Source: Eledone cirrhosa
Lineage: Eukaryota
Reading direction: 5' to 3'
DNA length: 64,000 nucleotides
NCBI GenBank assembly: GCA_964016885.1
Contig: OZ024742.1
Coordinates: 228,842,001-228,906,000, forward strand
The first letter of the stretch is position 1. Each line of letters opens with the position of its first letter. The notes below the pieces were generated by a model. The model was given only the letters and a program-made list of their open reading frames with translations, was not told where the DNA came from and made no database searches. Below, in pieces: positions 11,947 to 12,320 of the stretch. The translations under genes and the position numbers were made by a program.

Positions 11947-12320
11947 TAGAAAGTGAGGTTTTGTTTACAAAATAAAAAATAACAGAGGTGTCCTACACGA
12001 GTGAAAGTATAAAGAAAAAGAGATGAAATCGAAAATGCAACTGGAGTCTTATTTAAAAAAAAAATATATATATTTATTTTGTTCCTTTACCGGTTTCGCA
12101 GTTCTTCTGCTTTTCAAAAGGTGAGTTGAGATGGAGGGTCTGTGGTTTTTCTCACAAAGGTGAGAAAAACCACAGATGTGAGAAAAACCACAGACCCTCC
12201 ATCTCAACTCACCTTTTGAAAAGCAGAAGAACTGCGAAACCGGTAAAGGAACAAAATAAATATATATATTTAAAAAAAAAATAAGACTCCAGTTGCATTT
12301 TCGATATCATCTCTTTTTCT
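11947..12320. mobile_element. Family D ~212-bp element, head-to-head pair, with variant HHR at 12212-12249 (+) and its mirror (-)
   Basis: cctt-TTGAAAA-gcag(aagaa)ctgc-GAAA-CCGG-TA-aagg; flanked by (TA)n. Confidence 0.85.

Follow-up and report, generated by a model that had tools for sequence, protein, structure and literature searches.

The hammerhead motif and its copies in the window

The DNA considered here is a stretch of 64,000 nt from the genome of Eledone cirrhosa, referred to below as the window. On its plus strand lies a 38-nt sequence with all the parts of a minimal type I hammerhead, in which the 3:8 pair of the core is U3:A8 (U3 at 12216, A8 at 12221) and self-cleavage is predicted after 12245 (Table 1). 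An earlier, sequence-only reading of the window had described this motif, and its sequence and position, its numbering and its predicted cut site are all confirmed, as is the count of six copies at five loci. Five matches with at most three mismatches are found, at 12084-12121 (-), 12212 (+), 26093 (+), 32341 (+, one mismatch) and 45366 (-, three mismatches), whereas shuffled sequence contains none; the sixth copy, at 34593-34627 (-), has a loop II shorter by 3 nt. The same reading gave the stems of the motif as perfect; stem I is a perfect helix of 4 bp (CCUU/AAGG) in only three of the six copies and of 3 bp in the rest. A CTACTT subfamily with the 3-bp stem I, to which copies 32341, 34593 and 45366 belong, makes up about half of the contig depth in sequencing run X1. 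The hammerhead of copy 45366 is broken, GACG replacing GAAA, and in the other five copies the core (U4 G5 A6 N7 A9, G12 A13 A14 A15.1, U16.1 H17 and a Watson-Crick 3:8 pair, here U3:A8) is intact.

The pair of copies at 11946-12320 is a single inverted Penelope-type insertion, of which the minus arm ends in the long tail and the plus arm in the short end; just before the plus arm, at about 12159-12174, stands a short duplication of its own first bases. The element of about 212 bp with recurrent ends that had been proposed is real as a recurrent unit of this family, called family D below. It is not the whole element, as the copy at 45.2-45.6 kb extends about 125 nt further 5' and other family D copies continue upstream into an ORF for a reverse transcriptase (RT) and endonuclease. 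The general repeat search of the window was dominated by microsatellites.

Other repeats share the window. Two tandem arrays of 311-bp units at 1130-4850 form one large inverted repeat of retrozyme-like character, with six units each carrying a canonical C3:G8 hammerhead and an ACGCGU palindrome. Three more canonical type I motifs, each with a stem I of 8 bp and a longer stem II, lie on the minus strand at 54990, 58487 and 62563, and a long G-/T-rich tandem repeat with a period of 9/12 bp and extreme GC skew occupies approximately 13971-17900.

Table 1. Features of the hammerhead-bearing copies and their parts, in window coordinates unless another locus is named.
Feature	Position	Strand	Remarks
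Minimal type I hammerhead motif	12212..12249	+	from sequence; cut predicted
Stem I	12212-12215/12246-12249	+	of the motif at 12212..12249
Core U3-U4-G5-A6-A7-A8-A9	12216-12222	+	of the motif at 12212..12249
Stem II with loop AAGAA	12223-12226/12232-12235	+	of the motif at 12212..12249
G12-A13-A14-A15.1	12236-12239	+	of the motif at 12212..12249
Palindrome ACCGGU	12239-12244	+	predicted cut after A17 (12245)
Inverted insertion, plus arm	12175..12320	+	recurrent 5' end to short 3' end joined to (TA)n
Inverted insertion, minus arm	11946..12156	-	long tail end; hammerhead 12084-12121
213-bp copy in (TA)n	26056..26268	+	recurrent 5' end to long tail; hammerhead 26093-26130
CTACTT subfamily copy	32305..32517	+	hammerhead 32341-32378
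Copy with loop II shorter by 3 nt	34456..34656	-	hammerhead 34593-34627
Longer copy	45229..45565	-	includes sequence 5' of the recurrent start; broken hammerhead 45366-45403
TATAAAA box	45465..45471	-	putative terminal-repeat promoter, about 30 nt 5' of the recurrent start
Inverted pair of sister family E	11395..11823 (approximate ends)		U3:A8, C13 hammerheads 11555-11593 (-) and 11667-11705 (+)
Overlapping frames, locus L108	3907-5271 and 2012-3973	-	
Overlapping frames, locus L303	4016-5296 and 1770-4100	-	

Related families across the genome

Exact family D cores number 11,776 in the 3.0-Gb assembly, against a control of 0. A sister family, E, in which GCAA stands in place of GAAA, gives 11,215 matches with C13 against 128 with A, G or T at that position, the two patterns differing slightly in stem II. 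An older subfamily, D', has 596 matches, taken with U at 11.1, and a pattern that excludes D and E has 3,427 against 42 in the control, mostly families F and G among the 100 listed. All told, at least 26,000 exact-pattern matches in this genome are U3:A8 motifs. A canonical C3:G8 sister with the same palindrome was also considered; of its 38 matches (11 in the control) two are D'-like, and these are taken as sporadic double mutants because D' has U3:A8 in 95 of its 100 listed matches and C3:G8 in none of those listed.

Families F and G (L276-L302) have U3:A8 hammerheads with a stem I of only 2 bp. Family F has C17 and, in L303, an intact RT-endonuclease frame of 777 codons, and for family G no ORF was found in the 1.5-kb flanks examined. 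At L108, L303 and L304 the E and F motifs stand on either side of RT-endonuclease frames, in direct tandem at about 4.8 kb; the frames share 56-58% identity with that of family D.

The carrier is a Neptune-type Penelope-like element

The unit of 212 bp forms the terminal-repeat end of a Neptune-type Penelope-like retroelement of about 5 kb that inserts in (TA)n. Amplification in a mobile family had been suggested from the sequence and is borne out, the carrier being an autonomous Penelope-like element with about 12,000 copies; the link to the autonomous element was not seen in that first reading. At locus L061, reached by walking upstream, (TA)n is followed in turn by an inverted repeat end, a partial repeat and the ORF, and then by a 3' region of 1.4 kb, the motif and (TA)n again. 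The hammerhead lies 1.4 kb past the stop that ends the frame for RT plus GIY-YIG and 75-140 nt 5' of the two 3' ends, and it is placed within a Penelope-like terminal repeat at L061, L108, L303 and L304.

In the last 438 codons of the L061 frame are found RT motifs, a linker of the form CX4CxxC and a GIY-YIG domain containing the CCHH residues. The family D protein (P0001) matches Pfam GIY-YIG above the cut-off (E 2.3e-6) and RVT_1 partially and below it; RVT_1 is above the cut-off in family F, and relatives carry RVT_1 together with GIY-YIG. This layout of RT, linker and GIY-YIG is given for both Neptune and Nematis (Craig et al., 2021, PMC8557442). The linker of P0001, CGRSNCGTC, is spaced, by eye, like the Neptune rows and unlike the Nematis rows of Fig. 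S2 of that study; the placement in Neptune goes by motifs and by-eye comparison. As in the Neptune elements with an endonuclease (EN+) described there, a C-terminal GIY-YIG domain with CCHH follows a CX2-5CxxC linker of Neptune-like spacing, and pseudo-LTRs, inverted truncated copies, a tail and a bias towards microsatellites are found. Family D has pseudo-LTRs, tandem and inverted truncated copies, a tail and (TA)n targets, and its copies, often inverted, are truncated at the 5' side and abut (TA)n; inverted truncated copies, tailed at one end and with (TA)n as target, have been described as the mark of Penelope elements. Among named proteins the nearest are those of Octopus bimaculoides (74%, with 60% of the query covered) and Argonauta hians (60%). 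Close relatives of the protein also occur on short contigs or in records labelled as bacterial genomes or symbionts (P0027, P0060, P0063, P0069, P0093 and P0120, with loci L246 and L247), where they are likely to be host contamination.

The arrangement of the frames may differ from that of the Neptune EN+ elements of Craig et al. (2021), in that family D has two overlapping frames with the RT-endonuclease in -1. The upstream frame, of about 430-455 codons and without a Pfam match, overlaps the RT-endonuclease frame in this way in D, E and F, at a run of six T (T TTT TTA G), and in D and E no Met precedes the conserved start of the RT frame. The overlap is in the same phase in 7 of the 11 relatives for which the start of the RT frame was found (L177, L184, L186, L192, L193, L197 and L198). 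By its sequence the six-T overlap is a candidate programmed -1 frameshift site. The legend to Fig. 1 of Craig et al. (2021, PMC8557442) treats a frameshifted ORF1 as optional and gives the canonical EN+ layout as a single ORF, and a literature search for frameshifting in Neptune elements, with most subscription papers outside its reach, returned nothing relevant.

Copy ends and a model for the origin of short copies

The ends of copies were read at the first 100 places on contig C1 that match a pattern lying downstream of the cut (12,331 matches genome-wide), among which the arms of inverted pairs are not independent. Forty-five copies start 64-75 nt before the cut, about 30 nt past TATAAAA, and 25 extend past the 200-nt upstream reference. 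The cut site is spanned by 88 copies, and two start exactly at it (post hoc Poisson P about 0.025), one of these being an inversion breakpoint; the two offer a weak hint of cleavage. At the 3' side 60 copies have the long tail, 37 the short end and three another end, the tail being about 65 nt long against 30-40 nt in Craig et al. (2021, PMC8557442). The TATAAAA region, present in L061 too, can be aligned between D and E but not with F, and the TATA-like box and the recurrent start are likely to represent a promoter and a transcription start.

The element that invites comparison here is PAc of Anolis carolinensis, whose RT has two initiation sites inside the RNA, so accounting for the tail, and for which uncut RNA is the main template while the hammerhead cuts only with protein (Frangieh et al., 2024, PMC11167929). 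Family D resembles it in the terminal-repeat hammerhead, the two 3' ends with a tail, the AT-rich targets and, as modelled here, the uncut RNA template. PAc differs in belonging to the Poseidon clade, in its C3:G8 pair and in an ORF that starts inside the ribozyme, the family D ORF starting about 170 nt past the cut site. On this analogy, a TATA-box promoter in the repeat would start the RNA about 72 nt 5' of the cut site, the endonuclease of the element would nick (TA)n, and the RT would start inside the RNA at one of two sites, giving the short end or the long tail. Copying back to the transcription start would then produce the units of about 148 and 212 bp, and longer RNA used as template would produce the longer copies. 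The template RNA would mostly be uncut, and two motifs would form, by pairing through ACCGGU, a double hammerhead that trims tandem or read-through transcripts from time to time. The 5'-end data suggest a simple origin of the short copies, by RT initiation inside the RNA and run-off at the transcription start.

The unit of 212 bp might instead be an independent non-autonomous element, SINE-like or a retrozyme, with master copies of its own that the Neptune protein mobilises. The clustering of 45 of the 100 5' ends within about 11 nt would suit such an element, as would the similar junctions in many short inverted pairs; the unit is, however, collinear with the end of the autonomous element, a quarter of the copies run past the 200-nt upstream reference, and short copies would be left without the putative TATA box, which is located outside the short unit. 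Nor do head-to-tail arrays of the unit occur in the loci displayed, and we consider this origin very unlikely. Metazoan non-LTR retrozymes (Li, Clavereau and Pollet, bioRxiv 10.64898/2026.07.22.740005) do share a type I hammerhead set in a short repeat of Penelope terminal-repeat origin, but they are non-coding tandem arrays, whereas family D is dispersed and is the end of a coding element. Identity with such a retrozyme was rejected, the family D unit being dispersed and collinear with the coding element.

Covariation and selection on the fold

Covariation analysis, proposed at the outset as a check, gives a positive answer between families: stems I and II covary while the U3:A8 core and CCGG are kept. 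Stems I and II are CCUU/AAGG and GCAG/CUGC in family D, and UUUU/AAAA and GCAUU(U)/(A)AAUGC in family E; stem II is GAUGG/CCAUC in F and GAUG/CAUC in G, both of which have a 2-bp stem I of AU/AU. UUGANAA, the CCGG palindrome and UH are kept in D, D', E, F and G, with the G10.1-C11.1 pair in place apart from D', whose matches have U at 11.1. G5, A6, A9, G12, A14, A15.1:U16.1, H17 and the 3:8 pair are kept across these five families and subfamilies, and positions 7 and 17 vary between families, as the hammerhead consensus allows; some loci entered these between-family tallies twice, and some had been chosen by their core. Downstream of the motif, the flanks of D, E and F give alignments no better than those of shuffles, and the upstream flank is alignable between D and E only.

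More distant relatives, from metagenomes or MAGs and many of them on short contigs, contain a palindromic type I motif at 11 of 82 loci: nine have C3:G8 on the coding strand, one is on the other strand, and one, in L200, is a plausible U3:A8 motif with a G-U rich stem II. Six of the C3:G8 motifs lie 86-256 nt past the matched frame; C3:G8 at the same place in these relatives means that the 3:8 pair itself covaries there. A further U3:A8 match, which falls within the coding match of L173, was discarded as spurious. In a protein tree whose rows are the relatives found here, six C3:G8 loci form a group with three bivalve proteins (86/93), and D, E, F and L200, all U3:A8, sit in an unresolved fork.

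Some results would suit a chance look-alike of a hammerhead, carried without function by a successful transposon. The stability of the monomer fold is not unusual against shuffles (z = -0.74), and Rfam reports no hammerhead on a full family D copy up to E = 10, nor among the 150 of 272 matches listed for the whole window. Rfam is insensitive here, because even the canonical array of the window falls below its cut-off (17.8 bits against 52). Within family D, moreover, the core and stems differ at 14 of 958 sites and the flanks at 61 of 5,118 (P = 0.52; core alone 1/360, stems 13/598) in 30 copies, all chosen by upstream sequence. This is the lack of excess core conservation that the sequence-only reading had named, together with a failure to cleave, as speaking against a ribozyme. 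As a test of function, conservation within a family was rejected, since copies decay neutrally after insertion and the neutral decay of dead copies predicts no excess. Against chance, of 20,000 dinucleotide shuffles made from the 213-nt copy just 5 fit even a loosened descriptor (a 3:8 pair of any Watson-Crick kind, stem II of at least 3 bp, stem I of at least 2 bp, palindromic stem III). The same core recurs with compensated stems at the same place in families whose downstream flanks align as poorly as shuffled sequence, and distant relatives have the C3:G8 version there. Chance is largely refuted by this covariation between families and we hold it to be extremely improbable, and selection on the hammerhead fold between families is well supported by the comparison of sequences.

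Standing of the U3:A8 core and expected cleavage

The proposal of a natural variant hammerhead finds support, as a U3:A8 minimal type I motif and predicted ribozyme, and so does the expectation that searches built on CUGANGA would miss it; Rfam misses it too. The variant is not new, having been reported by Perreault et al. (2011) and, for Penelope hammerheads, by Cervera and De la Pena (2014). Natural U3-A8 covariation, with earlier in vitro activity cited, was described by Perreault et al. (2011, PMC3088659), whose hammerheads are alike in making the same compensatory 3:8 swap in nature; in the parts of that paper that concern them they are not placed in Penelope elements and no dimer-type stem III is described. 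The U3-A8 pair occurs in the Cercyon Penelope-like elements of Schistosoma mansoni, with about 1,300 matches (Cervera and De la Pena, 2014, PMC4209133). The supplementary alignment to that paper has UUGAAAA in an element-associated row and C3:G8 in Lottia and Crassostrea rows, with no octopus among the rows consulted. The Cercyon hammerheads resemble those of family D in being minimal type I motifs in a Penelope terminal repeat with U3-A8 (Sm4 is UUGAAAA), in the short helix I and palindromic helix III, and in occurring mostly as single truncated copies with close inverted pairs. Unlike them, family D has CCGG as a 4-nt palindromic insert, a stem II of 4 bp that follows A9 without an intervening base, and A17, as well as a carrier of Neptune type and a copy number about tenfold theirs. 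We are highly confident that the motif is a minimal type I hammerhead with U3:A8, carried in the terminal repeat of a Neptune-type Penelope-like retrotransposon present in many copies.

It is probable that the family D hammerhead cleaves measurably, and from the modelled folds and the comparison of families the cleavage is probably weak. No tertiary contacts were identified in it. The short palindromic helix III (ACCGGU) would permit a dimer by predicted cofolding, and the predicted best dimer is a double hammerhead paired through ACCGGU with stems I exchanged, at -20.3 kcal/mol against -6.4 for one monomer. A minimal motif of S. mansoni shows no cleavage as a monomer and low cleavage as a dimer (Cervera and De la Pena, 2014, PMC4209133). 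U3 pairs with A17 in the minimum-energy prediction of monomer and dimer alike. Weak cleavage is probable because this pairing is possible, because 88 of the 100 copies span the cut site and because family E carries A13C. Changes at A13 strongly reduce hammerhead activity. A13 belongs to the consensus core of the hammerhead (Perreault et al., 2011, PMC3088659), and a literature search for a hammerhead with A13C, with most subscription papers outside its reach, found no paper. The U3-A17 pair may be the analogue of a known trap, C3-G17 pairing being the proposed reason that G17 impairs minimal hammerheads (Kalweit and Hammann, 2013). The explanation that we favour as a whole, and regard as fairly likely, is a hammerhead in a Neptune-type repeat with U3:A8 common to the sister families, in which slow cutting is likely and help from a dimer or a protein is probable.

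The clade spreads well with weakened motifs, with C13 in E and 2-bp stems I in F and G, and it could be asked whether the fold, while kept by selection, no longer cuts in this clade and serves at the 5' end of the RNA as an element for folding, protein binding or dimerisation. The U3-A17 trap in the predicted fold, the near fixation of C13 in family E (11,215 against 128), the 2-bp stems I and the many copies that span the cut would all fit such a loss, as would the finding that insertion of PAc in vitro is unimpaired by ribozyme mutants (Frangieh et al., 2024, PMC11167929). What weighs against it is that five families and subfamilies keep all of G5, A6, A9, G12, A14, A15.1:U16.1, H17 and the 3:8 pair, positions of importance for catalysis, that U3-A8 is reported to be active in vitro in other scaffolds (Przybilski, 2007, cited by Perreault et al., 2011, PMC3088659), and that two of the 100 copies start exactly at the cut, with the post hoc P and the inversion breakpoint noted above. 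A complete loss of cutting with the fold retained seems to us unlikely. In the same way we are doubtful that the hammerhead has been tuned down or off in the octopod-like Neptune lineage with the fold still selected; the motif would then be a protein-gated switch or a non-cutting RNA element beside the transcription start.

Significance

The claim of a U3:A8 core adds little in itself, the variant having been published in 2011 and, for Penelope hammerheads, in 2014, and the value of the finding lies in the test set that it provides. At least 26,000 U3:A8 matches in one genome are invisible to searches for CUGANGA. The families form a graded natural series, with A17 or C17, A13 or C13 and a stem I of 4 or 2 bp, in closely related and recently successful elements. 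Were the tuned-down reading true, such a series would make the role of Penelope hammerheads directly testable, and the graded series as it stands permits a direct test of whether cleavage matters for the mobility of Penelope elements.
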